DNA of 64,000 nucleotides, taken from contig OY970314.1 in the NCBI GenBank assembly GCA_963716475.1, forward strand, positions 787,865 to 851,864, given 5' to 3'. Every line of letters starts with the position of its first letter. Positions within the stretch are counted from its first letter, which is position 1. The notes beneath the pieces are model-generated. The model ran no database searches, was not told the DNA's origin, and saw nothing but the letters and a program-made list of their open reading frames with translations. Shown piece after piece: positions 37,539 to 61,807 of the stretch. The position numbers and the translations under genes are program-made. The stretch comes from Candidatus Woesebacteria bacterium. Lineage in GTDB: Bacteria; Patescibacteriota; Microgenomatia; UBA8517.

Positions 37539-37562
37539 CTTCAAAATTGATACAATTGCTGC

Positions 37563-39646: not shown

Positions 39647-39662
39647 TGTTACAATATTAGGC

Positions 39663-41726: not shown

Positions 41727-42238
41727 GGGGCCGCAGTTGGAGAACTTGAAGGCCTTGCTGTTGGGCTGGCAGTAGGGCTTGCGGTCAGACTAGCAGATGG
41801 GGACGCTGTTGAAATTGGTCTTCCGGAACCGCTTGCTGTCGGTACTTCTATCGGAGTAGCGGCCGGAATAATGGTTGGTGTAAATGTGGCCACCGTCGTT
41901 GGGGTTGGCTGAGGTGAAAGAAGTTTTGCACCAAAAACATACGCCGCAACTGCCAAAACAGCAACTAATGCCAAAATTATCGCTATTATCAATAAAGGTG
42001 ATTTTTTCTTTGGACTTTCCTGCACAGGAGTCACTGTTTCAGCCGGAGGGGGTGACGCGGTCTCTAAAGGAATCACTGACGGAGATTCCTGTGCCTGTGG
42101 GTTCTGTACAACGGGCTGTTCCACGGGTACCGGCTGCTGCGGAACGGTAACATCCTGTTTAACGGGGTTTTGCAAATCCTGTCCGGGGTTCTTTACTCCA
42201 CCATCTTCCCCTTGCGGATTTTGATTATTTGGGTCCAT
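41723..42238 (-). CDS. Pro/Gln/Thr-rich single-pass membrane protein, hypothetical.
   Basis: 171 aa with a low-complexity N-terminal half, a TM LLIIAIILALVAVLAVAAYVF, and a PT-rich tail. Confidence 0.35.
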   Translation of the reverse strand: MDPNNQNPQGEDGGVKNPGQDLQNPVKQDVTVPQQPVPVEQPVVQNPQAQESPSVIPLETASPPPAETVTPVQESPKKKSPLLIIAIILALVAVLAVAAYVFGAKLLSPQPTPTTVATFTPTIIPAATPIEVPTASGSGRPISTASPSASLTASPTASPTARPSSSPTAAP

Positions 42239-43412: not shown

Positions 43413-46046
43413 TTACCAAGCGAGGCGCAGGAACAAATCCCGTGCCAAGGTTGTATTATAACTGTAAGAACCCTCCCTGGTCAAGGCAAACCTCGGGTCA
43501 GGATTGGACTGTGTTCCACCGCCCTCAATAATAATATTTATCGGGTCGGAATCGGTACCCGCCTGTTTTCTAATATACAGGCCGTAATTCGCCAAATGAG
43601 TTGTTTCTTCCGACCCCGATGTCCAGGAAAATTCTATGTTTTTATCGCCACCGGCCAAAAGATCCACCAGTACGCCTATCTCTATATGACCCCTCACCTC
43701 AGTCAACTCGGGAGATAACGTTTCCTGAACTCCGGCATTATAACTTATAACAGAAACTGTAGATGCATCGTCAGGAACCAAAATCCTCACATAAGCCTTA
43801 TATCTGCCCGAGGGCCCGAGTGCGGGGTTGGCCGGATTTTTAAGGGATAGTGTCAATTTGTGATTTATTTCGCTTGCGCCGAGAGTTACGTCAAGGTTGA
43901 TATTTCTCTGAATAAAATAATTTGTTTTATTATCACCAACGTTTGCCTCAACAACACCTACCAGATCGGCATAACAACTTGTTCCGCAAGTAGGTGTTGC
44001 CACAGCTCCGTCCCAGCCGAGTGCTGAGAAAGCATCTTGTGAAACGTTTTCGTGTAAATATACTTGAATGTGACGTTCGTCAAGGCTTGCATAAAAAGTT
44101 CTGAGCATGTCTACTTTTTGGTTTGTCTTTAGGCTGCTAAAATCAGCCAAAAGACTTCGTGAAAGAGCGGTCAGGAAACTAGCTTTGTTGTGGGTCCCCG
44201 GGAAAAAACTGCTATCTACTTCACTTTGTGTTTTTTCGTATAAATTATCTGAGGTAATGTCCAAATTGTAATCAGACAAAAATATCGGGCCGGTATTTTT
44301 AAGCATTTCCTTTATCGGAAATAGATCTACTGCTACGACCCCATCAACCTGTTTACTTATTTCTTTGTCCAAAAACCATTCCGCCCTTTTGGCCGAAGTC
44401 GGAAAATCGGGATCCCAGTTGGAATCTCTGAACCACCAATTTGCCTCGCCCAAATAGTTTTTAATCGGGGCCGGGGGTTCTACGTGCCCGTTAAGTTGTC
44501 CGTCTGCAGAGTAAACATCGTTAACGGTAAGATCGGTAAGACGCCCGCTGTCAAAAGTAAGTAATCCAAAAGAACCAATAAAACCACCCGTAGGCCTTAG
44601 TTCCATGTTGTTTTCAAAAAGAACCAAATACGTTTTACTTTTATCTTGTCCCAGGAGTTCGGGAGCATTGGCGGCGAGAATCCGGCACTCTGAAATTAGA
44701 TTGATAAACCGCTCAAAATCAATTTTGCTCAATATTTTTTTTGCCAGAATAATGTTTTGTTCTGAGGCGTTATCTGTCAACGATTTTGTTAATAGAACGT
44801 CATTGTAAAGAAATTCCACCTCAGATTCAATTTTGCGGGACTGGTTGGTCGAGTCGTAAACCTGATCCCCGAATACACTTTCAAACAGTTTGGTTGTATC
44901 TTTGACAACAGGTATAGCATGAGTTCCGATGGTATCGGATTGCTCTGTGAAAACTGATGCAAATTCTGTTTCTTTGTAAATTAAACGAAACCCCGGAATG
45001 TAGCTAAAAACTTTACTTGTCTTTTCTGAGACTACGGCGAAAGTCCGGGCCAACAAAAAAGAATTTTGAGAAAAACCGTCATTACCTGCTACAAAACTTT
45101 TGTATGCTATAAAAGTAATAAGCAGACTTATTAATACGGTAACAAAAGGAAACACTAAAAGGAGAAAAAGTGCCAGAATTACGGTCTTAAATTTCCTGAA
45201 GGACGGCTTCTTGATTTTAACAATCTTTTTTTTGTCTTCTTTCGTCTCCGTCGCCGGCGCCGGGTGTTTGGGCCAGTTATTTCTTAGCCAGCCGTATGTT
45301 TCATTCAAAGTAAAGCCTAAATTACTACTCACAATTTCTCTTTCAAAATCCTTAGGTATGCTTCTTGCAGCAATTTTTAAGTCATATTTTAATTTAAGGT
45401 CACCAACATATTTTTGGTTGTAGTTCCAAAAAGTATCGCCAGAGGTCTGGCTTCCTAGAAGAAAAACCACTTTACCATAAGGTCCGAACGAAAAAAGCCA
45501 CCTGACTATTACTTTCACTGCATCCGCTATAAAAATTGGGAATAGTACGTCCCCAACCGCCAATGTCATTTTTCTTTCATAAAGAATCTCCGATAACAAC
45601 CTCGAGGCCAACAGATCACTTTCGAGATCAATCCTCGGACCAAGTAAATCCCCCACAAAGAGCACTACTAAGCTGTCAGGAACTTTAAATTTTTCAACCC
45701 GGCTCCTGTCAAACGCCTCAAGGGGAAAAATAACCAAAGTCTTTACTTGGGTTATGTCTATTAGTGAACTAAAATCGGCATATTCTTTGTAAGCATTAAA
45801 TGAATTTACAAAGCCTCCAAAAAAGATCGCGTAATCATATAGGTTATTGCTGTCAAGGTTTTTTCTATCGATAATGCTAAATTTATTGTTTGTTGATAAC
45901 TGGCGTGTTCTACTTTTCCAGTTGCTCGTGTCTTTTGTTATAACATTAACAATACAATTTTTGGAAAGAAGGTTTTCAAGAATATTTACTGCCAAAAAGT
46001 TTGCGTCCGAAAATAAACAAATTAAAAGTTTGCCTTGAGGGTTCAT
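43413..46046 (-). CDS. Large membrane protein with an N-terminal Rossmann-like domain, one TM and a C-terminal DUF4012-like extracytoplasmic domain (capsule/exopolysaccharide-locus type).
   Basis: 877 aa with the TM VILALFLLLVFPFVTVLISLLITFIAY. The C-terminal LRPTGGFIGSFGLLTFDSGRLTDLTVNDVYSADGQ...NWWFRDSNWDPDFP resembles DUF4012. It sits directly upstream of rplY. Confidence 0.5.
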   Translation of the reverse strand: MNPQGKLLICLFSDANFLAVNILENLLSKNCIVNVITKDTSNWKSRTRQLSTNNKFSIIDRKNLDSNNLYDYAIFFGGFVNSFNAYKEYADFSSLIDITQVKTLVIFPLEAFDRSRVEKFKVPDSLVVLFVGDLLGPRIDLESDLLASRLLSEILYERKMTLAVGDVLFPIFIADAVKVIVRWLFSFGPYGKVVFLLGSQTSGDTFWNYNQKYVGDLKLKYDLKIAARSIPKDFEREIVSSNLGFTLNETYGWLRNNWPKHPAPATETKEDKKKIVKIKKPSFRKFKTVILALFLLLVFPFVTVLISLLITFIAYKSFVAGNDGFSQNSFLLARTFAVVSEKTSKVFSYIPGFRLIYKETEFASVFTEQSDTIGTHAIPVVKDTTKLFESVFGDQVYDSTNQSRKIESEVEFLYNDVLLTKSLTDNASEQNIILAKKILSKIDFERFINLISECRILAANAPELLGQDKSKTYLVLFENNMELRPTGGFIGSFGLLTFDSGRLTDLTVNDVYSADGQLNGHVEPPAPIKNYLGEANWWFRDSNWDPDFPTSAKRAEWFLDKEISKQVDGVVAVDLFPIKEMLKNTGPIFLSDYNLDITSDNLYEKTQSEVDSSFFPGTHNKASFLTALSRSLLADFSSLKTNQKVDMLRTFYASLDERHIQVYLHENVSQDAFSALGWDGAVATPTCGTSCYADLVGVVEANVGDNKTNYFIQRNINLDVTLGASEINHKLTLSLKNPANPALGPSGRYKAYVRILVPDDASTVSVISYNAGVQETLSPELTEVRGHIEIGVLVDLLAGGDKNIEFSWTSGSEETTHLANYGLYIRKQAGTDSDPINIIIEGGGTQSNPDPRFALTREGSYSYNTTLARDLFLRLAW

Positions 46047-46192: not shown

Positions 46193-46615
46193 TTAACTAT
46201 TTTTGTCCAGCTCTCTGTTTACTAAAACGTCTGCTTTCTTGTTTTTTGAACGGGGAATGTTTTTATACAAAATCGTTAGTTCAATTGTTTTTGACAACTT
46301 ATTTACCTGAAGGAAAAGCTCTGTAAGTTTTTTGTCTTTTACCTTATAGACTCCGCTAATTTGCCGTGCAACCAACTCGGAATCCAAATAAAATATTGCC
46401 GACCTTGCCGTAAGGTTTTTATGGTTAGTGCTAAGCCACTTAAGAGCAAGTATCACACCCTGATATTCTGCGCAGTTATTCGTTGAGTTCCCTAAAAAAC
46501 CAGACTCTTCCTGAATTATTTTTCCGCCGACTTCAGCAACAAAAGCGCAGGCGGCCGGCCCCGGATTACCTCTGGCCCCCCCGTCGGTATGAATAACAAT
46601 TCCGTCTTCATTCAT
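46193..46615 (-). CDS. rnhA: Ribonuclease HI-like (type 1 RNase H).
   Basis: IVIHTDGGARGNPGPAACAFV...NCAEYQGVILALKW...LDSELV carries the DEDD-type catalytic residues in context. Confidence 0.7.
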   Translation of the reverse strand: MNEDGIVIHTDGGARGNPGPAACAFVAEVGGKIIQEESGFLGNSTNNCAEYQGVILALKWLSTNHKNLTARSAIFYLDSELVARQISGVYKVKDKKLTELFLQVNKLSKTIELTILYKNIPRSKNKKADVLVNRELDKNS

Positions 46616-47985
46616 GCAAACAGTTTACCATTTCGACTCGAAACGGCCAAGCTACGCTTACCAGTGCTCTGGCTGGACAAGCTACGCTTATCAGTGCTCT
46701 GACTGGCTAAGCTTGGCTTATCACTAAACTTGTTTTCCGCTTCAAGGGAGTTTCCTAATACAAATGCCAAAAGAAACATGTTTTGTTGTAAAGTAAACCA
46801 GTAGTGATCGACAAGCCCCGTCGTTAATACAAACACCAGAGCCAAAAATATAATTTTATCGTTTAATAAAAACGCTTTCCGGTTTGTTTTGACCAGTAGA
46901 AAATAGACAAAAGACAAACCGATTATTCCAGTTTCGCTAAAAATTAGGAGGAAAATGTTGTGAACCGGCTGTAAAATCCACAAGAATGATCCTGCGTATG
47001 GAATTTTGGTTTCATTTATAACAAAAGTATTAAGCCCCTCCCCTTGCCAGAATTTTTCTGAAATCATGCTACCTGCGATCGAAGACAAGTCGAGTCTCTG
47101 TATAATGTTTGAGGGATAATTAAATTTGTTGCTAAAATATTTTGCTGAAACAAAAGGAAGAACTAAACTAATCAATAAAAATACGGATGGAATAAATACA
47201 AGAGCCCCGGTTCTAAAATATTTTCTTCTTATAAGCATGTACAAAATACCACAAGCAATAATTCCGACTACTGACGAAAGTGAGAATGTCAGCAAGAAGG
47301 CAATAAAAACAATCGTTATTCCCAAGATCCTTTTAACGAGTTCTTTTTGGGAATAAGTGAACGATATCACTAGAAGCCCCAAGCCCAAATACCCGGCAAA
47401 AGAGTTGGGGTGAGAAAACGTAGAGTATGCCCTCATAAAATTTCTACCCAAAATTTGAGTAAGTGCGATCCCTGGGGTTGAAACATTAAAACTGCGTTCT
47501 CCTAACAAATAGAATGGTCCGCCCAGGGTTCTTCTCAAAATAAATTGGAAAATCCCGATCACGGAAAAAAATATAAGAGAGTAAAACAAAGTGGCAATCA
47601 AGGTTTTTGATTTAAAAATGTCACTCCTAACCCGAACATAAAAATAAAATATTACAAGTTCCGATAATTTTAACCATTTGTAAACCGATGGGAAAACCGA
47701 TGTTGAGAATGCTATGTTTACTACCGCCAAGAAAATGAATAGAAAAATATAGATTTTGTTTTTCTCGACAGTTTCAAGAAATATTTTGTGATAACTTCTC
47801 ATCCAAATAACAAACAATGTCAGAAACAAAGCATCGGTTAAATAAATACTCGGCGCCAGATAGTCAACTCTTATGCCGAATACAAATGCTGTGGGCGGCC
47901 AAAAATGAAGCGCCAACTGTGTAGGAAGCAAAAAAATAAGAAGGTAATTTAAATACTTTTCCAGCCGGACCCAGCAAGAAATCAC
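46612..47985 (-). CDS. O-antigen ligase / Wzy_C-family polymerase-ligase membrane protein with a repetitive basic C-terminal tail.
   Basis: 12 TMs and LQPVHNIFLLIFSETGIIGLSF (HNxFL...E.GiiGL, the Wzy_C signature). The C-terminal tail has 10-aa repeats SQSTDKRSLS/SQSTGKRSLA. Confidence 0.6.
   Translation of the reverse strand: MISCWVRLEKYLNYLLIFLLPTQLALHFWPPTAFVFGIRVDYLAPSIYLTDALFLTLFVIWMRSYHKIFLETVEKNKIYIFLFIFLAVVNIAFSTSVFPSVYKWLKLSELVIFYFYVRVRSDIFKSKTLIATLFYSLIFFSVIGIFQFILRRTLGGPFYLLGERSFNVSTPGIALTQILGRNFMRAYSTFSHPNSFAGYLGLGLLVISFTYSQKELVKRILGITIVFIAFLLTFSLSSVVGIIACGILYMLIRRKYFRTGALVFIPSVFLLISLVLPFVSAKYFSNKFNYPSNIIQRLDLSSIAGSMISEKFWQGEGLNTFVINETKIPYAGSFLWILQPVHNIFLLIFSETGIIGLSFVYFLLVKTNRKAFLLNDKIIFLALVFVLTTGLVDHYWFTLQQNMFLLAFVLGNSLEAENKFSDKPSLASQSTDKRSLSSQSTGKRSLAVSSRNGKLFA
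46649..46726 (-). repeat. 30-nt tandem repeat (about 2.6 copies) encoding the C-terminal tail of the O-antigen-ligase-like protein.
   Basis: caagctacgcttaccagtgctctggctgga / caagctacgcttatcagtgctctgactggc / taagcttggcttatcact. Confidence 0.6.
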
Positions 47986-48443
47986 TTTTTTGGCTTAATT
48001 ATTAAGAAACGTTCCTCTCCTTCCCCTTGAGATTCTGTTGTTATGCTGTCGTCCTCGGAAAGGGCAAGGTGAATAACTCTTCTTTGCCAGGACTTCAGGT
48101 TGTATAGGTTTTGCGGTTCTCCTGTTTCCTTCGCCCTCTGGGCGGTAGAGGTGGCCAGATCTTTAAGATAGCCTTCTTCCTTCTCTCTATAATCACCCAC
48201 GTTGATAAGAACTCTGTTCCATTCCCCTGTTTTTTGCTTTAGGAGAAACCCCAGAACCGTCTGGATGCCCAAAAGCGTTTCACCCTTTTTACCTATCAGA
48301 AGTCCTGTTTCGTCACCCGCGTCTATATTAACGGTAAAGGCTTCGTTTTCCTTATCGTAAGAGACTGCCGCCTTAGCTTTGGTTAACATCAGGGACAACA
48401 GTTCGTCGGTTAGTTTTTGTAAAATTTTTACTTTCTTTTCCAT
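47982..48443 (-). CDS. jag: Jag/KhpB (SpoIIIJ-associated) RNA-binding protein with KH and R3H domains.
   Basis: ...LLIGKKGETLLGIQTVL... (KH GxxG) and ...SWQRRVIHLALSEDDSITTESQGEGEERFLII (R3H), downstream of yidC. Confidence 0.8.
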   Translation of the reverse strand: MEKKVKILQKLTDELLSLMLTKAKAAVSYDKENEAFTVNIDAGDETGLLIGKKGETLLGIQTVLGFLLKQKTGEWNRVLINVGDYREKEEGYLKDLATSTAQRAKETGEPQNLYNLKSWQRRVIHLALSEDDSITTESQGEGEERFLIIKPKK

Positions 48444-48486: not shown

Positions 48487-49320
48487 TCATGTTTCCGGAC
48501 GTGATCTTATCAAATTTAACCTCTTAATAAAAGGAGTCAAACTCCCCCATCCTGACATGCTTACCTGCTGCCATACGTTAACTACCGAAAAAACCAACCA
48601 GTAAAGTGCAAGCCCTGATTGAAATGTCAAACCAAAATAAAGGGTCATAAGCGGCAACATATAAGTCATTGAGCTCTGCATGGCAACTTGCATGTCGTCG
48701 GTCTGGGACTTGGTTTTTTTGGCAATTTTTTGCTCTTCCGAAATATATGGTGCCATTATCTTAACGGATAGAAACTGTGCAATCGCTGCCAAGATGACAA
48801 AAATCCCAGGAATTATGTCAGGTAACCCCGGTATCAACTTGTTTAACTTGTCCGGCTGGTTGATATCCATGTACAAAAATTTTGTATTTATTGTTTGGCC
48901 TTGCGAAAATTGTAGAGGAGCATAGAGTCGCTTATTAAGATTGGCTGTCACGTCTCCACTCCTGGCAAGAGCGGTGTTAAAAACGTTGAAAAGCGCTATC
49001 AATATTACAAATTGCAAAATATACGGAAGGCATCCTGCGGTTGGATTAATTTTGTTCTGCTTGTAAAGCTCTGCCTGTGCTTGAGACATTTTAAGTTTAT
49101 CTGTACCGAATTTTTTCCTAAGTTTTGCCAACTGAGGTTCCATCTCTTTTATTCTTTTCATTGATTGCATATAAGGTTTTGTCAGGGGTCGAAGGAGAAA
49201 GACGAGGACAAGACTAAAAACCAGTATCGCAATACCCAAATTTTGTCCCAAAACTTTATAAAAAAGAATAAGGCCGTTAGTTAGCGGTTGGACAAGAATG
49301 ATTGTAAAAATATTTCCCAT
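48487..49320 (-). CDS. yidC: Membrane protein insertase YidC/Oxa1, short form.
   Basis: ...MEPQLAKLRKKFGTDKLKMSQAQAELYKQNKINPTAGCLPYILQFVILIALF... with the conserved rpmH-rnpA-yidD-yidC-jag order. Confidence 0.85.
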   Translation of the reverse strand: MGNIFTIILVQPLTNGLILFYKVLGQNLGIAILVFSLVLVFLLRPLTKPYMQSMKRIKEMEPQLAKLRKKFGTDKLKMSQAQAELYKQNKINPTAGCLPYILQFVILIALFNVFNTALARSGDVTANLNKRLYAPLQFSQGQTINTKFLYMDINQPDKLNKLIPGLPDIIPGIFVILAAIAQFLSVKIMAPYISEEQKIAKKTKSQTDDMQVAMQSSMTYMLPLMTLYFGLTFQSGLALYWLVFSVVNVWQQVSMSGWGSLTPFIKRLNLIRSRPET

Positions 49321-49325
49321 GCTAT

Positions 49326-49562
49326 TTAATGACTACTTAATTCTGGTACGGGATCCCAGCCGGACCCTCCCCAAGGATGACACCTCGCAAATCTTTTAAT
49401 TCCCACAGCCAATCCTCTCTTGGTTCCAAATCTTTCCAGGGCGGTAATTGTATACTCGCTGCACGTTGGTGTAAACCTGCAGGCCTTCCCAAAAACCATC
49501 TCTAGAACCGGCGAAATAATGTTTTTGTAAAATTTGAGTATTTTAATAATAAGTATATTCAT
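49326..49562 (-). CDS. yidD: Membrane protein insertion efficiency factor YidD.
   Basis: [51 protein letters not shown]. Confidence 0.85.
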
Positions 49563-49903
49563 TTTGACAAACCGCTTTCTTTAAGGGAAATGCGGACCTC
49601 CTTCATAATCTCAGATGTAGAAACTCTGGCAATGGACGTTTTGGCCAAAAATATAACGTCAAAACCACTGCTTAAGTCAATGCTGGCGATCCTTACCGCC
49701 TCGCTCATGGCTCTCTTAAATCTGTTCCGATCTACCGCGTCTTTGGCAATTTTTGTGGAAACTATAAAACCAAAACGGCTTGGGTCAGTATCCCCTCTCC
49801 TTATATATGCAATTCCAAAATTTGCGGACTGGTAAACCGTCCCCTCTTTTTGAATCTTGGCAAAACTCTTCGCTCCTGTAAGCCTAAATTTTTTGGCAAG
49901 CAT
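49559..49903 (-). CDS. rnpA: RNase P protein component.
   Basis: [21 protein letters not shown]...[11 protein letters not shown], with an ATGA overlap to yidD. Confidence 0.85.
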
Positions 49904-49911
49904 TTTGGAGT

Positions 49912-50055
49912 TTACGAGACCGCAAGGTGTTTCCTTCCTTTAAGTCTTCTTCTTTTTAATACCTGTCTGCCTTTTTTTGATTCCATCCTGGTTCTAAAAC
50001 CGTGTACTTTAATTCTTTTGGTTTTACTTGGTTGGTAAGTCCTTTTCGTCGACAT
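49912..50055 (-). CDS. rpmH: 50S ribosomal protein L34. The ORF track misses it because it is under 60 aa.
   Basis: Manual translation of the minus strand gives [47 protein letters not shown], the canonical L34, ending 8 nt before rnpA. Confidence 0.85.
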
Positions 50056-50113
50056 GTGAGCATTATATCAACTAAACGGTTAATTAATCAACCTTTTAAC
50101 TGCCAATTGGCCC

Positions 50114-50131
50114 TTGACGAATTGTGGATAA
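50114..50131 (+). promoter_or_regulatory. dnaA promoter region with a -35-like TTGACG overlapped by a perfect DnaA box (TGTGGATAA, 50123..50131), suggesting autoregulation.
   Basis: cccTTGACGaatTGTGGATAActttgtaaac lies 25-40 nt upstream of the dnaA ATG. Confidence 0.5.
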
Positions 50132-50155
50132 CTTTGTAAACAGTACTTTCAAGAT

Positions 50156-51517
50156 ATGGATAATGGTCAAGTCTGGAAAGATTCACTGGAAATAATAAAG
50201 GTCTCCGTTTCCCCGGCAATTTTTTCCACATGGTTTTCACAAAGCCACCTTTCCTCTATCGAGGCTGTGGGCGAGAGGGTTGTTGCCGAAGTCGGGTGTC
50301 CCACATCTTTTGCAAAAAACACAATCGAATCGAGATACTTTGGGCTGGTTCAAGACTCTTTAAGTAAGGTTGTAGGCAAAAACTGCGATTTGACGTTCAT
50401 TGTTAAAACCAACCCAAATAAACAAAAATTACCCGAGGAGACGGCGGCTCCTCTATTTTCGGTAGAAAAAGAGGGAAACGATTTGCTTGAAGTATTACAA
50501 AGAGCCCGTCTTAGACCCAGTTTTACATTCGAGAATTTTGCCGTTTCTTCGTCTAACCAAATGGCCCACGCAGCTGCCGAGGCCGTATCACAAAGCCTGG
50601 GAAGTGCTTATAACCCCTTATTCATCTGGGGTGGGGTGGGAGTTGGGAAAACCCACCTTATGGCCTCTGTCGGAAATTATATTCTAAGGGTTAACCCGGA
50701 TAAAAAAGTTATTTTTTGCACAGGCGAGGATTTCACTAACGACATTGTCGAGGGAATCAGAAACAAAACCACCCAGGCTTTCAGAAATAAATACAGAAAG
50801 CTGGATTTACTTCTAATCGATGATATTCAATTCATTGCAGGCAAGGATACTGTACAGGAGGAGTTCTTCCATACCTTTAATGCTGTCACCTCCGTCGGCG
50901 GGCAAATTATTTTAACTTCGGATCGACCACCCTCAGAAATATCCAAACTTGAAGAAAGGCTTAGAAGCAGGTTTGAGGCGGGCTTAATCGTAGATATTGC
51001 CCCGCCTGATTTCGAACTTAGGTGTGCAATAACTCAAATAAAGGCTCGGGAAAAGGGAATCGCCCTGACTCCGGAACAAGCCCAAATGATAGCCGCCAAC
51101 TCCGAATCGGCCAGAAAAATTGAAGGCCTGCTTACCAAGCTCCTGACCGAGATCCATGTTAAAAAGGTCCCGATTACAAACGAGCTTATTGAATCGTCTT
51201 TTGCAAAAAATCTGGAAATGGGGAGCAAAATTACAAGAAGCACTCCTGATGAGGTGACAGAGGTTGTTTCCAAGTATTACCAGGTAGGCAAAAGACTTCT
51301 TATGGGGGACAGCCGGGCCCGTCCGATTGCGCGTCCCAGACAGGTTCTAATGTATTTACTTCGAACACACCTTGGTGTGCCGTTGGAAGAAGTCGGAAGG
51401 GTCGTTGGGGGAAGGGACCACACCACCGTCATGCATGCTGTGGAGAAAATCACCCAGCTGGCCACCAACGATGTGCAGATCCGTGAGGATATCTTAAAAC
51501 TAAAACAAAGCATTTGA
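50156..51517 (+). CDS. dnaA: Chromosomal replication initiator DnaA.
   Basis: AAA+ motifs GGVGVGKTHLMASVGNYI, LLLIDDIQFIAGK, and C-terminal DNA-binding VGGRDHTTVMHAVEKI. Confidence 0.95.
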   Translation: MDNGQVWKDSLEIIKVSVSPAIFSTWFSQSHLSSIEAVGERVVAEVGCPTSFAKNTIESRYFGLVQDSLSKVVGKNCDLTFIVKTNPNKQKLPEETAAPLFSVEKEGNDLLEVLQRARLRPSFTFENFAVSSSNQMAHAAAEAVSQSLGSAYNPLFIWGGVGVGKTHLMASVGNYILRVNPDKKVIFCTGEDFTNDIVEGIRNKTTQAFRNKYRKLDLLLIDDIQFIAGKDTVQEEFFHTFNAVTSVGGQIILTSDRPPSEISKLEERLRSRFEAGLIVDIAPPDFELRCAITQIKAREKGIALTPEQAQMIAANSESARKIEGLLTKLLTEIHVKKVPITNELIESSFAKNLEMGSKITRSTPDEVTEVVSKYYQVGKRLLMGDSRARPIARPRQVLMYLLRTHLGVPLEEVGRVVGGRDHTTVMHAVEKITQLATNDVQIREDILKLKQSI

Positions 51518-51785
51518 GGATAACTATTTACGTATATAGAGTTATGAACAATGGGTTTACTTTTATCCACAAATCTATCAACATTCTGCCAGGCTTGTTA
51601 TTAACACGAAATTGTCCCGAAAGATGTATTTAAAAAATGATAATTCTCAACTTATCAACACCACCTACTACTAGAACTACTAGTTAATATATGATAAACA
51701 CAGTTTGTCACAAACTTCGTTTTGTGATAAATAACAAGATATTCACAGGGACAGTGAAACGAAAATGTAAAGATAAAATCATCCT
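51518..51785 (+). other. Candidate oriC: the dnaA-dnaN intergenic region with DnaA boxes and an AT-rich unwinding element.
   Basis: Perfect TTATCCACA at 51563..51571, a 1-mismatch TTATCAACA at 51652..51660, and AT-rich aaagatgtatttaaaaaatgataattctcaac at 51620..51650. Confidence 0.6.
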
Positions 51786-52910
51786 ATGAAACTACAAATC
51801 CTTCAGGAAAATCTGGAAAAAGCTGTCAGTACGACATCCCGTTTTGCCAGTACTAGAGCCCAACTTCCTGTTTTAGGAAACATTCTTCTTTCTACCAAAA
51901 AAACTAAAATTTATATTTCCTCAACAAACTTGGAAATTTCTGCTTCAGTCCAGGTAGGAGCAAAAATCGAAGAAGAAGGGGAAATAAGTATTCCGGCCAA
52001 GGTAATCTCCGAACTGGTCGCCAATTTACCCAAAGAAACAGTAAGCCTGGTATCAGAAAAGGAGCAGTTAAAAGTGTCTGTGTCAGGTTTTTCCTCAACT
52101 GTTTTGGGAATGAACTCTTCCGACTTCCCCAAAATACCAAATAGTGTAGATAAAGAAAAATCGATAAGTTTTCCACAAAGCGAATTGGTAAAAGCTCTTG
52201 GACAGGTCATATTTGCGACTTCTACAGACGAGACAAGACCCGTTTTAACAGGGGTACTCTTCTTGTTTGGAAAAAATTCACTATCACTGGTCGCAACGGA
52301 CGGATTTAGGTTGTCCAGGAAGACGCTTCCTTTGAAGGTAGGTAAGGGGGCGGATGACAGTGTGGTTATACCGAAGGGTGTTCTTAGTGAAATTTCAAGA
52401 ACAGAAGCGGAGGATGGTGAAATACTTTTCGGTGTGCAGGACAAAGAAAAGCAGGTACTTTTTGGGATAGGGGATACAGTACTAACTTCCCGTCTTTTGG
52501 AAGGAGAATACCCGGATTTTGAGAAAATAATTCCAAAAAGCTCGTCAATAAAAGTACTTTTGGATAAGGAAGAACTTATGAGGGCGGTAAAACTGGCATC
52601 TATCTTTGCCAGGGAATCCGCAAATATAGTAAAAATTAAGGTTTTGAAGGAATCGATCAAAGTTTCCGCCGAGAGCGGAACTGCGGGTAGCCAGGAAACC
52701 AGGGTAGATGCAAAAGTAACCACTGAAGGCCCCGATCTTGCCGAATGGGAAATAGCTTTTAACTACCGTTTTGTGGAGGAATTTTTACACTCGGTCGGCG
52801 GAGAAGAAGTAAAAATGGAATTCTCCGGCGTTTCCGCTCCGGGAGTTTTTACGGATACATCCGACACATCATATCTTCACCTGATAATGCCGGTTAAAGT
52901 TCAAACTTAA
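51786..52910 (+). CDS. dnaN: DNA polymerase III beta sliding clamp.
   Basis: MKLQILQENLEKAVSTTSRFASTRAQLPVLGNILLS... with three-domain length and position after dnaA. Confidence 0.9.
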   Translation: MKLQILQENLEKAVSTTSRFASTRAQLPVLGNILLSTKKTKIYISSTNLEISASVQVGAKIEEEGEISIPAKVISELVANLPKETVSLVSEKEQLKVSVSGFSSTVLGMNSSDFPKIPNSVDKEKSISFPQSELVKALGQVIFATSTDETRPVLTGVLFLFGKNSLSLVATDGFRLSRKTLPLKVGKGADDSVVIPKGVLSEISRTEAEDGEILFGVQDKEKQVLFGIGDTVLTSRLLEGEYPDFEKIIPKSSSIKVLLDKEELMRAVKLASIFARESANIVKIKVLKESIKVSAESGTAGSQETRVDAKVTTEGPDLAEWEIAFNYRFVEEFLHSVGGEEVKMEFSGVSAPGVFTDTSDTSYLHLIMPVKVQT

Positions 52911-53905
52911 AGACCTTCTAGGGCCGGTAAATAAAGTATCACTTGGACATCACCCACACCTAAGAGTGTTGCTGTCCCTGTTAGCTTATATACAGGTTGG
53001 AGACTTGTTGACGAAGTTGTGTCAAGTAGGTATGCAATATCTATTTGATCTATAACAATTTCCTTTACAAAATCCGAGGGTAAATCCTTCATAGGGGTTT
53101 CTACTCCGTCAAGACTGATTAAAACAGAGTTTCCGATAGAATCACCGATTTCTTTATAAGTCTTAATTGCATATTCAGTAGGCCCTTTTTGCGCATCATC
53201 AAAAACAACCAGTTGGAGCGAATAAACGTTCCCGCCTTTTGTTAGTTGTATGTAGTTGGTACTTTCAGTTGAAGTGGGTGAGATAATCTCGTATTCGGAC
53301 GATTTGGGTAAAATGTCTATTTGATATAACGAAAAATCGTCCCTGGTTGATTTTTTGAAACCTTCGCGTAAACCACCGTCTTTGAGGAATTGTACGTTTC
53401 CTAAAGAAAAGGCATTCGTATTTAAAATACCGGCATCTGTCAGGAATTTGCTGGCAGTGGCCTTAACAGCATCTTCCGATAGCTGCTTGTCGGTAACGAG
53501 GAAAGATTCTCCTGAGCTATAACGGATGCTCGACGTGTTTGTGTATGCAAAAAGGGTTGAGTTGTCGTTTTTCCAAAAATACGTCAGACCTTCTTGGGTG
53601 TCGTTTATTGTCGTAGGGAGACCTGTAAAGCCTATAAAGGAAGCAATATTATTGAGATAGTCTTCCGTAATGACTCTTTTTGTAATATTTAAAAAGGGAA
53701 GCCGGGCGACATATTTAAATTGGTTTTCCTTTATGTTTAAAGATATCGATAAAGCGCCATTGTAAGTTTGAACAAGATTTGGTTTATGGGGAACAAGGCC
53801 GGCATTTTTATTTGGAGTCCCTTTTAGATAAAGATATACGATCCAGACAATACTTATCAGGGATACGACAACCAAGGCTATTTTGATCAATTTCTTCACA
53901 TTCAT
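52907..53905 (-). CDS. Type-II membrane-anchored extracytoplasmic protein, hypothetical. It may be an accessory (VirB8-like position) of the adjacent T4SS-like module.
   Basis: A 332-aa protein with an N-terminal anchor LIKIALVVVSLISIVWIVYLYL and no motif I can name. It is the last gene of the minus-strand block 63611->52907, with a 9-nt gap after the giant gene. Confidence 0.35.
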   Translation of the reverse strand: MNVKKLIKIALVVVSLISIVWIVYLYLKGTPNKNAGLVPHKPNLVQTYNGALSISLNIKENQFKYVARLPFLNITKRVITEDYLNNIASFIGFTGLPTTINDTQEGLTYFWKNDNSTLFAYTNTSSIRYSSGESFLVTDKQLSEDAVKATASKFLTDAGILNTNAFSLGNVQFLKDGGLREGFKKSTRDDFSLYQIDILPKSSEYEIISPTSTESTNYIQLTKGGNVYSLQLVVFDDAQKGPTEYAIKTYKEIGDSIGNSVLISLDGVETPMKDLPSDFVKEIVIDQIDIAYLLDTTSSTSLQPVYKLTGTATLLGVGDVQVILYLPALEGL

Positions 53906-53914
53906 ATTATATGT

Positions 53915-56900
53915 TTAATTACAAGTTGCCGTACTTGTACAGCCAAGCGGAACATTTCTTTTAAGATAAGGTTTTTGAGTTGTGGGAATAGGCCCCGTGT
54001 CAAAGAATTGGAAGTGTAAATGAGGACCACTGGTACAGCTACCTGTGTTGTCACTGATTCCGAGAGGTTGGCCAATTGTTACTCTTTGACCGTTGCCAAC
54101 CATAACAGAACCCAAATGTCCGTAATATGAACTAAACGACGATCCGCCGCAGGACGAAGCCACACGAACCCACCTTCCCCCACAGGCGCTTTCCCCGGTG
54201 CTTATGGTTCCGCTATGCATGGCAATGATGGTTGCACCATTTACGCCAATGTCGATTGCATTTGGGGTGTTGTAATGTGTCCACCCCAGGGGTGTCATGG
54301 ACCCTTGGGTAATAAGATTTATGCCTGCGTCGTTGGCAAGAGGCCAGGCATTATTTGGGCATTCCATTGGCGGGGCGCCAATTATTATTGAGGCAGATCC
54401 TGCCGAAACCACACCCTTTTGGTCCGTCGTGTCTGCAGTAACAGTAAACGTGTTTACCGTTGCAGAATTGTCATAGTTGTGAGAGGTAAAACTTCGTGTG
54501 TAAGTGAAGCTAAAAGGTTTGGTCGGCGAAATCGAAACAGGCGCCGCAGGTGTCCCTTGAGAAGGGCTTGGGCAAGAGGGAGGTGTCCCTGTTTTGATAA
54601 CTTTGCATTCATCTTTAAAGGAAACATTGGTTAATACGCCTTTTTTAGCAGAAACAGTAATTGTATAGGTAATCTTGGTTTTTGTGGGAATGTCGGAGTT
54701 ATTGAAAGGGCCTGCGGGATTGGCAGTTTTTTCAACACTGATATAAGGGTTACTTAAAGCGGCAAGATAACCGGTTGGGGTTGACGGAGGAACGACATAG
54801 GCGCCGGAGTTAATAATAAAAAGAATCAGGGCAACCAGAACGGGGATGACGAGAAGGGCTATTAATATAGGCATAACAGCGGCTGTCAAAAAGGTCCTCC
54901 CTACGGCGCGAAAAAATACCGCAATTCCACTTCCAACTCCGGCCATTGTTACTCCGGCCGTGGAAGCGACACCAACGCCGACCACCGTGATCCCACCCAA
55001 AATAAGACCCGTACTACCGATGACCAAGCCACCAACCAGCATAGGCGCCCCAATAATGGCGCTTCCAATTGCCATGCCGTTTTCTTTTACCTTTTTCCAG
55101 TTGATCTTTTCAATAATTTTTCCTACCACCCAACCCAATGCCAAGGCAATCGCATTCCCGATAATCGGTATCCATGACCCTAGAGTCTGAAGAGCTGTGT
55201 TGAGAGCAACCATCGTGCCCTTGCCCACCACTGATACAGCGGCTTTTGTTGCCGCAGATGCAGCAGCCTTTCCCACTACTGGTGTTAGTAATTTTGTTAC
55301 CGCCTCGGTTTCAATTCCCGTTGCGAGACCTTCCGCGGCGACAATCCCGGTAGCACCCTCGGCCAATAAGGTTCCTCCCTCGACAACGGCTGCTTCTTCG
55401 ACCAACGCAGTGCCCTCAGTTACTAAAAGAGACGCTTCGGCAATTTCGGCAGGGGCAGCTGCACCGATCAGATCAATTCCCAAAACGTCGCCGAGACCTT
55501 CGAGAAAATTCGAACCACCCGGAATTTTTTGAATAAGACCCCCGAGCGGGCTTTCACCAATTGGCGTGGTCTTACTAAATCCCGCAGACGATAAGACTTG
55601 TTGTCCCAGCTCACTGTTGTAAAATTTGGAAATGGCGCTGTCTGCAGGCAGGTTGGCTATTTTAGAATCAAGAAAGTCTCTGGCACGACCCGTTAGTAAA
55701 CTTTTAGCCTTATCGCTAGCAAAAGAGCCAATATTGTCCAGAACATCTGACTGTGATTCCAGAAGATTAGTGTAGCCTTCATTAAGTTGCCCGAGGTCTA
55801 TTTCGTGTGTGTATCCTTCGTTCGGTTGACCTAAAAAGGAAACTTTTAAATTTTCGGGACCCGTACCAAAAACAGAAACTGCAAGATTTTCGTCTATTGA
55901 AGAGAGAATGTTCTTACTAAGTTGGGCGCTATTCTTAAAATGACCCAGATCCGCGGAGGCCTTTTTTAGAAGTTCGGCAGTGTTTGTTTCGGCGACCAAC
56001 TTTGGCAGAATCTTTGAATCCTCGGCTAAAGCACCCAGAATAGCGGATTGAGTGTTTGCGGATGATTGGGCGGGGAAATTATTAATTGCAGAAACCGTAT
56101 CAAATGCCGTTTTTTTGACTATAAAATCAATTTGTTCCGGGGTAAGTTTCTTTGAAAGCTCCGGGGTTATTTTTGCTTTTATACTTTCTGCCAAATCTTT
56201 TTCAAAGGATGCGGGATAATTTTTCGCTTCTTCTATAAACTTGATCGTACTTTCACTTGGTGGAGGAGCCTCTTTTGAAATTTCCACCCGGGCGTAAATC
56301 TTTTTACCCGTTAAAGGTTCCTGGATATCTTTTTGTCTACTAATAGCTTCTTCCAACTTTTCTTTTGCCCCCTCGCTTATGGTTGGTTGTTCCGGAATTA
56401 CCATTTTTTCTTCTGGTAGCTCAGCCGTAGGTCCCGCCTGTCGGGTAAAAAGAAGCGGTACGGATGTTATTGATTCAGAGGTAGGAGATGTTTCTATCGG
56501 TTGGCCTGAAAGTGAGACGTATGGGGTTAGTGTTGGAGCAGCAACCGCAACTGCGACAGCCGACGGTTCCACATTTAGTACCACAGGCTTAACTTCAGGG
56601 AGAACAACCTTGTCTAAAAGAACAGAGGTTTGCTTTGCAGATTCGCTCATTTTCCCGGGATAGTTAGCAGGCATAGACATCTTGGGCAGAACGGAAGGAG
56701 GTTCAATTTGACCGATTTCTACTTGTGAAGTAATAGTTGTGACACTGTTGCCAAAACTGTGAACATCGCTAATGTTGATTGCAGGTAAACTTTGATTCTC
56801 CTGATTCTCGGCTATTTTAAATTGGGTTGCCTCCTCGGGGCCGTAAGCAGCCACAACCACGTTTTCCGGTAGAAAAGTCTTCAAGAGAGCGGTGTTTGTT

Positions 56901-59900
56901 TGGTACTGTGTATTTGCGACGTCTGCGGCTGTTTTTGCAGCAGAAGCAAACTTCACCCTTTCTTCTGTGTCAGGAATGATGTTCTTAAGACCGGGATCGC
57001 GTGCGTCTGCTACAGCACTAAAATAAGCAACGGGATTAATGGGTGAGGCAATCTCTTTGGGAAGATCTTCTACGGTATTTATATTCTTACCTGCATCAAC
57101 CATACGCAAGGTGAAGTCTTGCGCTGTTTTTCCAATTACGGCCGGGGTTATAGATGCCTGTAGTGGTGGGTTTTTGGCAACAGCCGAACTGATATTTTCC
57201 TCAACGATTTTTTCGAAGGCGGGAGGGTCGTTTTTGGCGGCCTTCACAACATTAAAGAAGGCCGTTCGATCCTTGTTGCTTTGGAGAGGAATTGTTACTG
57301 TTTCAGTAGCAGGCTCAATTCTTATTTCCTTGACCGCAGTTGATGTTGTTTTTGGGGGGGTGGCAACCGCGACGGTTCCTCCGAAAAGCTCTTCCGGGAG
57401 AGAAACCTTTTCCTTGTTTATTGGGGATGGTTGGGAGGTGGTCTGGGAAGCTCCGAATTCGTCTGAAACAGGCATTTCTGATACGGAAAAAGGTGTTTCG
57501 GGAGCAGTGGTTTGTAGTATTGTGGCATGGGCGACGGGTGTTTCAGTTGTGGACAGCTCCGGCGCCAAGTTCTTTGCTTGAGTTAGGGGTTCTTCAATGG
57601 GGGCATTTTTAACACCAAAAAACGCCCTTATTCGGTCATTAATTTTTAGTTTGGTTGACGGAACCGTCGGAGTGGTGGAGACATTGATCTGAGAAACACT
57701 GGTGGGAGTTCCTACTTCGGGGGAATGCTCAGCCTCGTTAACGGGTAGCTGGGAATATGATGGTGGAAAGCCCGTTTCTTCGGTGGTAGGTAAGGGTTTG
57801 GGATTTGAAGCGGCATTCTTGTTTACAGGTATCAGGGCCGGGATTGGGGTAACAACAGGCTCCTCTGAAATGGGTGATGGTGTTTCGGAAGTGGGGGTGG
57901 TCTCCGAAGGAGTTTGACTTACTGTCGCCTGAGCAAATTGAACAGGAGGAGCAAAAACGGTCGGTGGAAACGGCGTCTGACTTGGCTCTGGAATTTGAGG
58001 AGTTTTCCCCAAGCCTTTAACAACACTATCCGTGGGCTTAACCTCTTGTGTTTGTACTACCACTGTTGGAATCACCGGTGGTATAAGCGTTACGGATGGT
58101 TCTTCGAAAACCGGTTGTGGGGACTCTTCCGTCACGGGAACGAAAGGCGGGTTCTCCGTTATTGTGGGTTGTGGTGTGCCTGGTGTAACCTGTGTTAGGT
58201 AAGGCGGTGGCGTGTATGTTACGGGTTGTGTTATGCCGGCTGCGCCTACCGAACCGGGTACACTTGTTGTTTCTTCATACGGTATCGGAGGGGTGGTATA
58301 TATCGCGGTTTCCTCTTCCGGGATCGGTTGTAACGGTTGTGGGGATTCCTCCTCTGTCCTTGCAATATGTCCAACGGCCTTTTCTCGTGAGGGCTCCCTG
58401 GTGCTGGATTCCTCTTTGGCTAGACCTTCGTTTTCCACCGGTGCCGGTTTTTTCTCAGGAGCTTTTTCAAATGTTTTTCTGATCCCTTCAAAGAAATTTT
58501 TCGGTGGGGCCTCGTCTGTAGTTTGTCTTGATTCGCCAGGTGTCCCTTTGGCCTTAGGAATTGTTCCATATACCATGGGTTGTTCTTCAGGAACGGGTTG
58601 TGATGCAGCGGATGTACCCAGAATTGACACATCTTGGGTTGGTTGAGTGGGCCGGTTAGACTGAATTGGCTGAATAGTCGGAATATACGCTACGGGTTTT
58701 TCCTCCTGGATTGGTTGCACCCCCTCTTCTCCTGCCGCCTCCTCCGTCTTTTTTGGTTTAGCTACTTTTATGGGTTGAGAGGTGTTTGGAGTATTTTGTG
58801 TGTTTGACGGTTGTTGATACCATGCCGATTGAACCTGTTGAGTGGGTTGAATCGGAATGTTTGCTGTACCCGGATTTTTTTGTATCTCTTCCGGCGCTCC
58901 CTGCGGAACAGACTGAGCCGGGTTATCGTTCTCTTTGGGAGCGGCCTTCCCGATAATGGCCGCTTGAAACGTTTTTGTTAGATTTTGAAAAGCCTGTTGG
59001 GGTGAAAACCTTCCCTTTGGTTTTGGTACACTTGGTAATTTTGACTCACCTGTTGCCTGCGTGAATGTTTGTGGCTGTTTTTCAAAAACATCCTGTGCAA
59101 GGAACGGCTCCCTGCTCAATTCGGGAGATTCTTGGATCTCCTCTTCTGTCGCTTGCGCTTCTTCTTGCCGGATTTTTTTCTGAAGATCGGCCTTACCGGT
59201 AAGCTCCTCCTGTCTACGGATTGCTGTTTTAATAGCATTTCCCAAAGCGTCGGATACTGTTTGTGTAGAGAATAGCTTTTTTGATTCCGACTTACTTGGG
59301 TTTACTGGTGAACGCATATCTTGCCTGTTTATTTCCGGTTGTTTTAATATGACACCGGGTGTCACAACGACCTCTGATGGGTGTGCGGACGGAATATGTT
59401 GTTTGAATTCTGGAGGTTTTAAAATAGCCTTTGCCTTTTGTACCTGCGGGGTCGCTTGCGGGGTAGGTTGTTTAACGGTCGTTTCCTTACCTTTTTCTGG
59501 AGCATTCTCGGCAGCTTTGACTTTTGAAGCTTCCGCCAGTGCCTGTTTTTTTTCTATTGAAGCCTGAACCTTTGCTTGGGCTTGCAGTTTTGTTTGTTTT
59601 ATCTTGCCTGTTCTTAAATTTTCCTCCGCCTGTAGTTGTGCCAGTTGATCCGGAGTTAAGGTGGTTGGGTGTACGGGGTATTCCGGCGCGCTTGTAACTG
59701 TCCGATATAAGATATTACTGGCAGACCTGATGTCGCTTGTTTTGGTTAGGTCTGTTATATAAACAAAGAAATCTTTATTGCTTGGCCAGTGGTATTTCCC
59801 GTCGATTGTCGTGAAAGATTCGTCGAGGCTCCTGTTTTCTCCTTCACCGAACAAATCGGACTTGAAAACTTGTTCGGTTCCATGAATAAGACCTTGAAGA

Positions 59901-59953
59901 TCCTGCCTGGTACATTGATCAAGAGTTTTGGGTGGAGCCAAATATTTCGCCAT
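53915..59953 (-). CDS. Giant (2012 aa) multidomain envelope protein. It has an N-terminal globular region, a roughly 1000-aa Pro/Thr/Gln/Glu-rich low-complexity region, a central folded region, a Gly/Ala-rich multi-TM block and a C-terminal M23 (LytM-type) peptidoglycan peptidase domain.
   Basis: The C-terminal about 130 aa read AIDIGVNGATIIAMHSGTIS...GGRWVRVASSCGGSSFSSYYGHLGSVMVGNGQRVTIGQPLGISDNTGSCTSGPHLHFQF, giving the HxxxD and HxH motifs. The TM cluster spans about aa 1530-1760 (nt ~54670..55370), and low complexity spans about aa 150-1150. It has no signal peptide and lies 24 nt downstream of the VirB4-like fragments. Confidence 0.7.
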   Translation of the reverse strand: MAKYLAPPKTLDQCTRQDLQGLIHGTEQVFKSDLFGEGENRSLDESFTTIDGKYHWPSNKDFFVYITDLTKTSDIRSASNILYRTVTSAPEYPVHPTTLTPDQLAQLQAEENLRTGKIKQTKLQAQAKVQASIEKKQALAEASKVKAAENAPEKGKETTVKQPTPQATPQVQKAKAILKPPEFKQHIPSAHPSEVVVTPGVILKQPEINRQDMRSPVNPSKSESKKLFSTQTVSDALGNAIKTAIRRQEELTGKADLQKKIRQEEAQATEEEIQESPELSREPFLAQDVFEKQPQTFTQATGESKLPSVPKPKGRFSPQQAFQNLTKTFQAAIIGKAAPKENDNPAQSVPQGAPEEIQKNPGTANIPIQPTQQVQSAWYQQPSNTQNTPNTSQPIKVAKPKKTEEAAGEEGVQPIQEEKPVAYIPTIQPIQSNRPTQPTQDVSILGTSAASQPVPEEQPMVYGTIPKAKGTPGESRQTTDEAPPKNFFEGIRKTFEKAPEKKPAPVENEGLAKEESSTREPSREKAVGHIARTEEESPQPLQPIPEEETAIYTTPPIPYEETTSVPGSVGAAGITQPVTYTPPPYLTQVTPGTPQPTITENPPFVPVTEESPQPVFEEPSVTLIPPVIPTVVVQTQEVKPTDSVVKGLGKTPQIPEPSQTPFPPTVFAPPVQFAQATVSQTPSETTPTSETPSPISEEPVVTPIPALIPVNKNAASNPKPLPTTEETGFPPSYSQLPVNEAEHSPEVGTPTSVSQINVSTTPTVPSTKLKINDRIRAFFGVKNAPIEEPLTQAKNLAPELSTTETPVAHATILQTTAPETPFSVSEMPVSDEFGASQTTSQPSPINKEKVSLPEELFGGTVAVATPPKTTSTAVKEIRIEPATETVTIPLQSNKDRTAFFNVVKAAKNDPPAFEKIVEENISSAVAKNPPLQASITPAVIGKTAQDFTLRMVDAGKNINTVEDLPKEIASPINPVAYFSAVADARDPGLKNIIPDTEERVKFASAAKTAADVANTQYQTNTALLKTFLPENVVVAAYGPEEATQFKIAENQENQSLPAINISDVHSFGNSVTTITSQVEIGQIEPPSVLPKMSMPANYPGKMSESAKQTSVLLDKVVLPEVKPVVLNVEPSAVAVAVAAPTLTPYVSLSGQPIETSPTSESITSVPLLFTRQAGPTAELPEEKMVIPEQPTISEGAKEKLEEAISRQKDIQEPLTGKKIYARVEISKEAPPPSESTIKFIEEAKNYPASFEKDLAESIKAKITPELSKKLTPEQIDFIVKKTAFDTVSAINNFPAQSSANTQSAILGALAEDSKILPKLVAETNTAELLKKASADLGHFKNSAQLSKNILSSIDENLAVSVFGTGPENLKVSFLGQPNEGYTHEIDLGQLNEGYTNLLESQSDVLDNIGSFASDKAKSLLTGRARDFLDSKIANLPADSAISKFYNSELGQQVLSSAGFSKTTPIGESPLGGLIQKIPGGSNFLEGLGDVLGIDLIGAAAPAEIAEASLLVTEGTALVEEAAVVEGGTLLAEGATGIVAAEGLATGIETEAVTKLLTPVVGKAAASAATKAAVSVVGKGTMVALNTALQTLGSWIPIIGNAIALALGWVVGKIIEKINWKKVKENGMAIGSAIIGAPMLVGGLVIGSTGLILGGITVVGVGVASTAGVTMAGVGSGIAVFFRAVGRTFLTAAVMPILIALLVIPVLVALILFIINSGAYVVPPSTPTGYLAALSNPYISVEKTANPAGPFNNSDIPTKTKITYTITVSAKKGVLTNVSFKDECKVIKTGTPPSCPSPSQGTPAAPVSISPTKPFSFTYTRSFTSHNYDNSATVNTFTVTADTTDQKGVVSAGSASIIIGAPPMECPNNAWPLANDAGINLITQGSMTPLGWTHYNTPNAIDIGVNGATIIAMHSGTISTGESACGGRWVRVASSCGGSSFSSYYGHLGSVMVGNGQRVTIGQPLGISDNTGSCTSGPHLHFQFFDTGPIPTTQKPYLKRNVPLGCTSTATCN

Positions 59954-59977
59954 TTTATTTAACCTGATGTTGCGGGT

Positions 59978-61802: not shown

Positions 61803-61807
61803 AATTT

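Follow-up and report, generated by a model that had tools for sequence, protein, structure and literature searches.

The window analysed here, a 64 kb stretch of DNA from contig OY970314.1 of a Candidatus Woesebacteria bacterium, very probably holds the replication origin (oriC) of a Patescibacteria genome (candidate phyla radiation, CPR; Microgenomatia-like), with the unwinding core in the spacer between the genes dnaA and dnaN, at approximately 51542-51700. This reading is based on the array of DnaA boxes, on a unique and conserved layout of boxes and DnaA-trios, on a coincident switch of the GC skew and on the conservation of the DnaA residues that capture the trios. DnaA-trios are the motifs at which the AAA+ oligomer of DnaA binds single-stranded DNA; their consensus is 3'-GAT-5' (PMC6669920; PMC10721633). 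An earlier note on the same DNA had placed oriC in the window; the box cluster, the skew switch and the conserved box-trio element support this placement and refine it to the dnaA-dnaN spacer.

The dnaA-dnaN spacer comprises 268 nt (51518-51785) with 31% G+C, against 42% for the window. The length given in the earlier note and its mention of an AT-rich stretch hold, but AT-richness by itself is not distinctive, because other intergenic regions span 27-47% G+C. The spacer contains the following elements (loci of related genomes are designated by L numbers):

51542-51583, plus strand: distal co-oriented boxes, TTATGAACA (51542-51550), the perfect TTATCCACA (51563-51571) and CTATCAACA (51575-51583), the last two in tandem with a 12-bp step
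51598-51606, plus strand: weak box TTATTAACA, 2 mismatches; the identical 9-mer is found at the equivalent position of L083
51644-51660, plus strand: proximal tandem pair of boxes with an 8-bp step, counterpart of B. subtilis box #6 and box #7
51661-51664, plus strand: G+C-rich 4-bp spacer CCAC, between the proximal box and trio 1
51665-51682, minus strand: six DnaA-trios, read on the plus strand as CTA CTA CTA GAA CTA CTA
51683-51700, no strand assigned: A+T-rich tract GTTAATATATGATAAACA, which is proposed to unwind first
51701-51785, plus strand: dnaN-proximal segment of about 85 nt, absent from close relatives

A search for the basal unwinding system (BUS) was coded from published rules (PMC8287927), namely a box with at most 2 mismatches, a spacer of at most 16 bp and at least 3 NAN trios, and was run on both strands of the window. 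The proximal box TTATCAACA (51652-51660), with 1 mismatch, is co-oriented with the trios and lies 4 bp from them. Its upstream partner is TTCTCAACT (51644-51652), which stays within the 4 mismatches accepted for a second tandem box; the match is weak in the window itself and a better partner, TTTTCCACT, is present in L083 and L086. On the minus strand the trio run reads 3'-GAT GAT GAT CTT GAT GAT-5', which contains three consecutive trios of the preferred GAT type, one non-NAN triplet and two further GAT. The permissive rule is satisfied by 79 sites in the window; the element at 51652 has CTA in 5 of its 6 triplets and each of the other 78 has at most 1. A run with at least 4 CTA in 6 in-frame triplets occurs at a single place on either strand (51665-51682). 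The least stable 30-mer duplex of the spacer (51668-51697) ranks 128 of 63,970 in the window (top 0.2%) and overlaps the trios and the A+T-rich tract, which provides the easily melted tract of a BUS.

The diagnostic trio run, placed straight after the 51652 box, had been overlooked in the earlier note, whose reading of the boxes is sharpened by it: the run places the unwinding site in the dnaA-dnaN spacer. By analogy with known origins, the trios at 51665-51682 are the proposed site at which the DnaA oligomer binds single-stranded DNA. The distal tandem pair at 51563 and 51575 was also considered as an unwinding platform and was rejected on inspection of the sequence, as no convincing trios follow it. 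The dnaN-proximal segment carries a palindrome, GTTTGTCACAAAC (51703-51715), the motif TTTTGTGATAAA and a weak box, ATATTCACA (51739-51747), and presumably contains putative dnaN expression signals. A consensus scan of the spacer gave no sigma-70 promoter for dnaN on the plus strand.

The boxes cluster around dnaA. The three described in the earlier note were read from the sequence at their positions: 50123-50131 and 51563-51571, both perfect, and 51652-51660, with 1 mismatch. The 64 kb contain no perfect box besides the first two, which lie one on each side of dnaA; shuffled sequence contains a mean of 0.35 perfect boxes, and 6 of 100 shuffles reach 2. Boxes with at most 1 mismatch number 27 in the window, against 16.1 expected, and 10 of these fall within 50123-52567, the 2.4 kb around dnaA, a clustering that none of 20,000 random placements matched. 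A significant non-coding box cluster, as is expected of an oriC, therefore adjoins dnaA. Two of the one-mismatch boxes overlap the ends of the gene:

50155-50163, minus strand: box TATGGATAA, overlapping the dnaA start codon (ATG GAT AAT)
51515-51523, minus strand: box TGAGGATAA, overlapping the dnaA stop codon

The box at the start codon may be a mere by-product of coding for M-D-N/K. The dnaA genes of L083 and L085 likewise begin with ATGGATAA, and the box is at most a possible regulatory site. At or near the position of the stop-codon box, L083, L085 and L086 have a reverse-oriented box-like 9-mer with 1-2 mismatches.

The GC skew changes sign at the same locus. Within the window, the cumulative G-C count per base declines from 0 to -1430 at 50260, inside dnaA and about 100 nt from its start, and then rises by approximately 400 over the last 13.7 kb. 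The two slopes are nearly equal and opposite, about -0.028 per bp on the left and +0.029 per bp on the right. Left of dnaA the plus-strand skew is -0.042 in plus-strand genes (-0.141 at third codon positions) and -0.097 in minus-strand genes (-0.104), and right of dnaA it is positive for both gene strands (+0.064 and +0.081). The sign is the same for genes on either strand and therefore the switch is not a by-product of gene orientation. The change from negative to positive is of the origin type, not of the terminus type. The skew minimum had been named in the earlier note as a check on the origin, and the minimum at dnaA, with the sign change inside the 64 kb, agrees with it. A positive excursion of the skew at 37000-42000 coincides with a block of plus-strand genes (35730-41726).

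The initiator encoded in the window has as its best solved relative the B. subtilis DnaA bound to its origin (8BTG, BUS complex; E 2.7e-98). The residues that capture or flank the trios were mapped through the alignment to the DnaA of 8BTG, as follows:

B. subtilis E183, E191 here: identical
B. subtilis N187, N195 here: identical
B. subtilis I190, V198 here: conservative
B. subtilis I193, I201 here: identical
B. subtilis N196, K204 here: different
B. subtilis R202, R210 here: identical
B. subtilis K222, K230 here: identical
B. subtilis E223, D231 here: conservative
B. subtilis E228, E236 here: identical

Overall, 6 of the 9 positions are identical, 2 are conservative and 1 is different, as is expected of a DnaA cognate to a BUS. 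By Pfam the DnaA domains are intact, and the protein has the Walker A and Walker B motifs, SDRPP and, in domain IV, the signature GGRDHTTV.

The layout is conserved in relatives. Among species-representative genomes, the closest DnaA proteins are those of Ca. Amesbacteria (49% identity) and other Patescibacteria, with Chloroflexota and Bacillota next; metagenomes yielded four nearer relatives, with 53-65% DnaA identity. The orthologous set was formed by the first 80 genome loci, of approximately 9 kb each, in 63 of which dnaN comes directly after dnaA. When each entire locus is scanned, the best BUS candidate falls within the dnaA-dnaN spacer and on the same strand in 46 of these 63 cases (35 of the 46 with at least 3 CTA); this spacer makes up 1.7% of the sequence searched. 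The 4-bp spacing between box and trios is the commonest case (34 of 59 loci). Across the 80 loci, the box density is 10.9 per kb in the rpmH-dnaA spacers, 9.3 per kb in the dnaA-dnaN spacers and 0.53 per kb elsewhere. Conserved box clusters in orthologous regions, which the earlier note had proposed to look for, are found, at about 10 boxes per kb over this background.

At closer range, the spacer and its counterpart in the Ca. Amesbacteria locus L001 can be aligned over about 135 bp with no gap, despite the 49% identity of the two DnaA proteins. The alignment takes in the tandem distal boxes, a CCCGAAA...TTAAAAAA block, the proximal box and the trios. A six-way alignment and footprint keeps the boxes, distal and proximal, together with the trios. 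The three-box distal block is common to L084, L083, L085, L086 and L001, and in the raw sequences the proximal box stands at -13 from trio 1 in 6 of 6 close sequences. The TTAATATATGATAAA portion of the A+T-rich tract is kept in L084 and L085, and an arrangement of the box #6/#7 type is found in Bacillota loci, for instance TTATCCACAAATCCACA in L035 and L070. The six close sequences differ in the placement of the distal block as a whole, with offsets of 0, 0, 0, 11, 12 and 23 bp. Helical phasing of the distal boxes is not claimed, since a Rayleigh test over 59 loci was "significant" at many unrelated periods and was dominated by related genomes.

Some details of the relatives extend beyond the boxes and trios. 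Between the box clusters (51584-51643), non-box motifs are kept without indels, namely CCCGAAA (L001), CCGAAAG (L084), the TTAAAAAA run (L001 only) and AACAC, although DnaA identity is 49-65%; they might be sites for an accessory factor, or their only role might be to maintain the spacing. A trio in the middle of the run (positions 3-5) departs from the NAN rule in L084, L083, L086, L004, L006, L057 and L078, with the plus-strand triplet GAA in the window and L084, CAA in L004, L006 and L078, and CGA in L057. In the Bacillota loci with at least 3 CTA, the trios at positions 3-5 all obey NAN, and the non-NAN middle trio may be a Patescibacteria habit. A compact and rigidly spaced variant of the BUS in the Microgenomatia-like lineage has been considered and is regarded as rather doubtful. 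It is suggested by the indel-free core of about 135 bp at 49% DnaA identity and by length changes of 11, 12 and 23 bp, roughly whole helical turns. The conserved CCCGAAA and TTAAAAAA motifs, as candidate accessory-factor sites, and the recurrent non-canonical trio at positions 3-5, which might mark a discontinuity of the DnaA filament, point in the same direction.

By analogy with the B. subtilis BUS, unwinding would begin with ATP-DnaA docking on the co-oriented boxes through domain IV. From the proximal pair, the DnaA oligomer would extend along the minus-strand trios through its AAA+ domain, flipping out and capturing the G-A dinucleotide of each trio. The captured strand would be stretched and the adjacent A+T-rich tract (51683-51700) would melt. 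Then, the helicase would be loaded and two forks would depart in opposite directions.

The element occupies the same dnaA-dnaN location as the incC region and BUS of the B. subtilis oriC (Richardson 2016; PMC6669920; PMC8287927; PMC10721633; 8BTG). Both systems have two co-oriented proximal boxes with an 8-bp step, a 4-bp G+C-rich spacer, six mostly 3'-GAT-5' trios and A+T-rich DNA, and in both distal co-oriented boxes lie upstream of the proximal pair and the trio-capture residues of DnaA are kept. In contrast to B. subtilis, the box nearest to the trios is here the better one (1 mismatch) and its partner has 3 mismatches, whereas the B. subtilis consensus box is the upstream box #6. Trio 4 is 3'-CTT-5' and non-NAN here, and the rpmH side of dnaA has a tiny spacer with one firm box instead of the incA/incB clusters. 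The element also obeys all the rules of the program used to predict BUS-type origins across bacteria (DoriC / Pelliciari et al. 2021).

On the other side of dnaA, the spacer that separates it from the divergent rpmH is 100 bp long and is filled by two promoter-like sites and one firm box:

50062-50091, minus strand: putative rpmH promoter, TTGATT-18-TATAAT, 10 of 12 matches in a consensus scan, with TG before the -10 element
50114-50142, plus strand: dnaA promoter block, with -35 TTGACG (50114-50119), box TGTGGATAA (50123-50131) and -10-like TAAACA (50137-50142)

The TGTGGATAA box reads as a perfect DnaA box on the minus strand and starts 3 nt after the -35 element and ends 5 nt before the -10-like element. 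TTGACG and TAAACA are separated by a promoter spacer of 17 nt, and at sequence level the block has the form of an autoregulated promoter, with a box between the core elements. A consensus box between -35 and -10 is the classic layout of DnaA autorepression. The CTTGAC-N4-TGTGGATAACTT block is kept in 8 relatives, and 42 of 47 divergent rpmH-dnaA spacers contain a box. The 50123-50131 box is most likely a putative autoregulatory operator of dnaA and may double as a distal looping box. The perfect box that the earlier note had reported in the dnaA promoter is indeed located there, but it is better read as an operator than as an origin element. As in E. coli and B. subtilis, in which dnaA is known to be autoregulated, a consensus box lies inside the promoter between -35 and -10 and is kept in relatives. 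Unlike the dnaA promoters of those two bacteria, the one described here has a single box, a very short leader (about 6-13 nt) and no Shine-Dalgarno sequence.

Both divergent genes appear to have almost no leader, as the -10 element of rpmH ends 6 nt ahead of the rpmH ATG and the dnaA -10-like hexamer ends 13 nt before the dnaA ATG. A Shine-Dalgarno sequence is absent ahead of dnaN as well. In L083, L084 and L085, whose start is visible in the alignment, the promoter block stands roughly at least 90 nt from the dnaA ATG, and this genome seems to have lost the dnaA leader.

The two box-bearing spacers invite the question of whether both of them serve the origin. In a bipartite origin of the B. 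subtilis or H. pylori type, both would be required and dnaA would be looped out between them. In the window, as in most relatives, dnaA has boxes on either side, and the distal boxes of B. subtilis can act by looping, in either orientation and over hundreds of bp (PMC6669920). This organisation is nevertheless unlikely, although it keeps an appreciable chance: the short upstream spacer is taken up by two promoter-like sites and has one firm box, that box sits in a conserved -35/-10 block and is explained by an operator role, and the downstream spacer already has a distal cluster of its own, with 3-4 boxes. Unwinding in the rpmH-dnaA spacer itself, with the dnaA-dnaN boxes merely regulating dnaN, is very improbable. 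Many bacteria have oriC upstream of dnaA and the skew minimum at 50260 is slightly closer to this spacer; however, the BUS scan gave no trio element in the rpmH-dnaA spacer, the most unstable 30-mer there ranks 1242nd against 128th downstream, and the downstream trio element is kept across phyla.

The boxes might also be transcriptional operators of dnaA and dnaN only, with the true origin elsewhere on the 983-kb contig. Some bacteria have origins distant from dnaA, and the window covers 6.5% of the contig (982,852 bp), which makes the skew minimum a local one. There is scarcely any probability left to this explanation, as the skew flips sign here with equal and opposite slopes regardless of gene strand, and no transcription role is known for the box-spacer-trio unit. 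Negligible weight is given to a chance microsatellite beside a chance near-box. Slippage can create short triplet repeats, and the NAN rule alone is permissive, as the 79 candidates indicate. The CTA run, however, is unique in 128 kb (both strands) and stands exactly 4 bp from a co-oriented box, and the box-trio unit recurs at the same place in relatives out to Bacillota; this conservation effectively refutes a chance origin. Several points, in addition to the limited share of the contig, weigh against an oriC with its unwinding core in the dnaA-dnaN spacer. The assignment is computational and sequence-derived, and the skew wanders locally, with a positive excursion at 37-42 kb in an otherwise negative left arm. 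The upstream box of the proximal pair is degenerate, with 3 mismatches, trio 4 (51674-51676) violates the NAN rule, the substitution at K204 affects a trio-contacting residue, and DNA less stable than the A+T-rich tract exists elsewhere in the window.

The genes around dnaA were identified with Pfam:

47982-48443, minus strand: gene of a jag/KhpB-like R3H protein
48487-49320, minus strand: yidC
49326-49562, minus strand: yidD
49559-49903, minus strand: rnpA
49912-50055, minus strand: rpmH
50156-51517, plus strand: dnaA, initiator of 453 aa (Bac_DnaA 1.5e-64, Bac_DnaA_C, DnaA_N)
51786-52910, plus strand: dnaN, sliding clamp of 374 aa (3 of 3 DNA_pol3_beta domains matched)

The order rpmH-rnpA-yidD-yidC-jag / dnaA-dnaN proposed in the earlier note is confirmed by Pfam matches for all seven genes. 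Directly past the jag-like gene (46193-47985) lie the gene of a Wzy_C (O-antigen ligase-like) membrane protein and a small RNase H / RVT_3 gene, and farther out, at 43413-46046, that of a DUF4012 protein of 877 aa. Rfam gave no structured RNA in either spacer, and its sole match in the window is a tRNA (29562-29634).

Beyond dnaN, the right end of the window contains a module that resembles a type IV secretion system (T4SS), with two open reading frames (ORFs) that lack a family assignment:

52907-53905, minus strand: ORF of 332 aa without family assignment, starting 1.1 kb from the spacer
53915-59953, minus strand: gene of a 2012-aa protein with an M23 peptidase domain (Peptidase_M23 match)
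59978-60634 and 60618-61802, minus strand: VirB4/TraG-type ATPase in two pieces (P-loop_TraG, CagE_TrbE_VirB)
61808-62533, minus strand: ORF of 241 aa without family assignment
62517-63611, minus strand: PrgI-family protein (PrgI match)

A VirB4 ATPase, a PrgI/VirB3-like protein and a cell-wall hydrolase are here found in one cluster, as in the MPF-FATA-like T4SS of Patescibacteria. The earlier note had the module start less than 1.2 kb from the origin; the module and its nearness are real, but the distance of 1.1 kb holds only if the ORF at 52907-53905 belongs to it. The first recognisable module genes are those of the M23 peptidase, from 53915, and virB4, from 59978. VirB4 and PrgI homologues lie beside dnaA also in L002, L004-L006 and L078; L074 and L125 have only VirB4 there. 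A T4SS near dnaA has already been published for Paceibacteria and Microgenomatia, with dnaA as the origin proxy (PMC12102498), in the only paper found to treat Patescibacteria, oriC and DnaA jointly. As in the monoderm-conjugation-like T4SS near dnaA of Patescibacteria (PMC12102498), the virB4-like, PrgI-family and large M23 hydrolase genes are found just past dnaN. Here the module follows dnaN and its transcription runs towards the origin, whereas that of L004-L006 and L078 is found upstream of dnaA and shares its strand.

The virB4-like gene is broken into two ORFs that overlap and differ in frame, with the junction at 60618-60634. In L004, L005, L006 and L078 the two virB4 parts are in one frame, 1071 nt apart. 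Between a common CAA and ATGGAAGAT, a stretch that includes the G-rich run GGGAAGGGAG, the window has 19 nt and L004 has 18 nt, a 1-nt indel that reflects a genuine frameshift, a pseudogene or an error of assembly. Transcription of the approximately 10.7 kb immediately to the right of dnaN (52907-63611) runs towards the origin and would meet the rightward fork head-on. In the gene of the 2012-aa M23-domain protein, which is part of this stretch, the AT skew is strongly negative (to -0.35) and the GC skew is strongly positive.

Some MAG records in the comparison set appear to be misnamed. L003, L006, L034 and L078 are titled Gammaproteobacteria/Pseudomonadales and yet are among the best matches to a Patescibacteria-like DnaA; L006 and L078 also carry VirB4 and PrgI of Patescibacteria type beside dnaA. 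Their Gammaproteobacteria/Pseudomonadales labels are probably wrong.

This is an ordinary dnaA-dnaN origin with a textbook box-trio module, and its description at the level of the sequence is probably new for the lineage. For an uncultivated genome of about 1 Mb, it fixes the probable start of replication at base-pair resolution, and an origin located in this way is of use for genome coordinates, for growth rates derived from read coverage and for gene-dosage arguments. It has been suggested that Patescibacteria keep the T4SS beside the origin to raise its expression, with dnaA as a stand-in for the origin (PMC12102498); here, the origin motifs themselves, and not the dnaA proxy, are placed beside the T4SS module. 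The locus and its relatives change no current view and add Patescibacteria examples to the evidence for an ancient and widespread box-plus-trio module.

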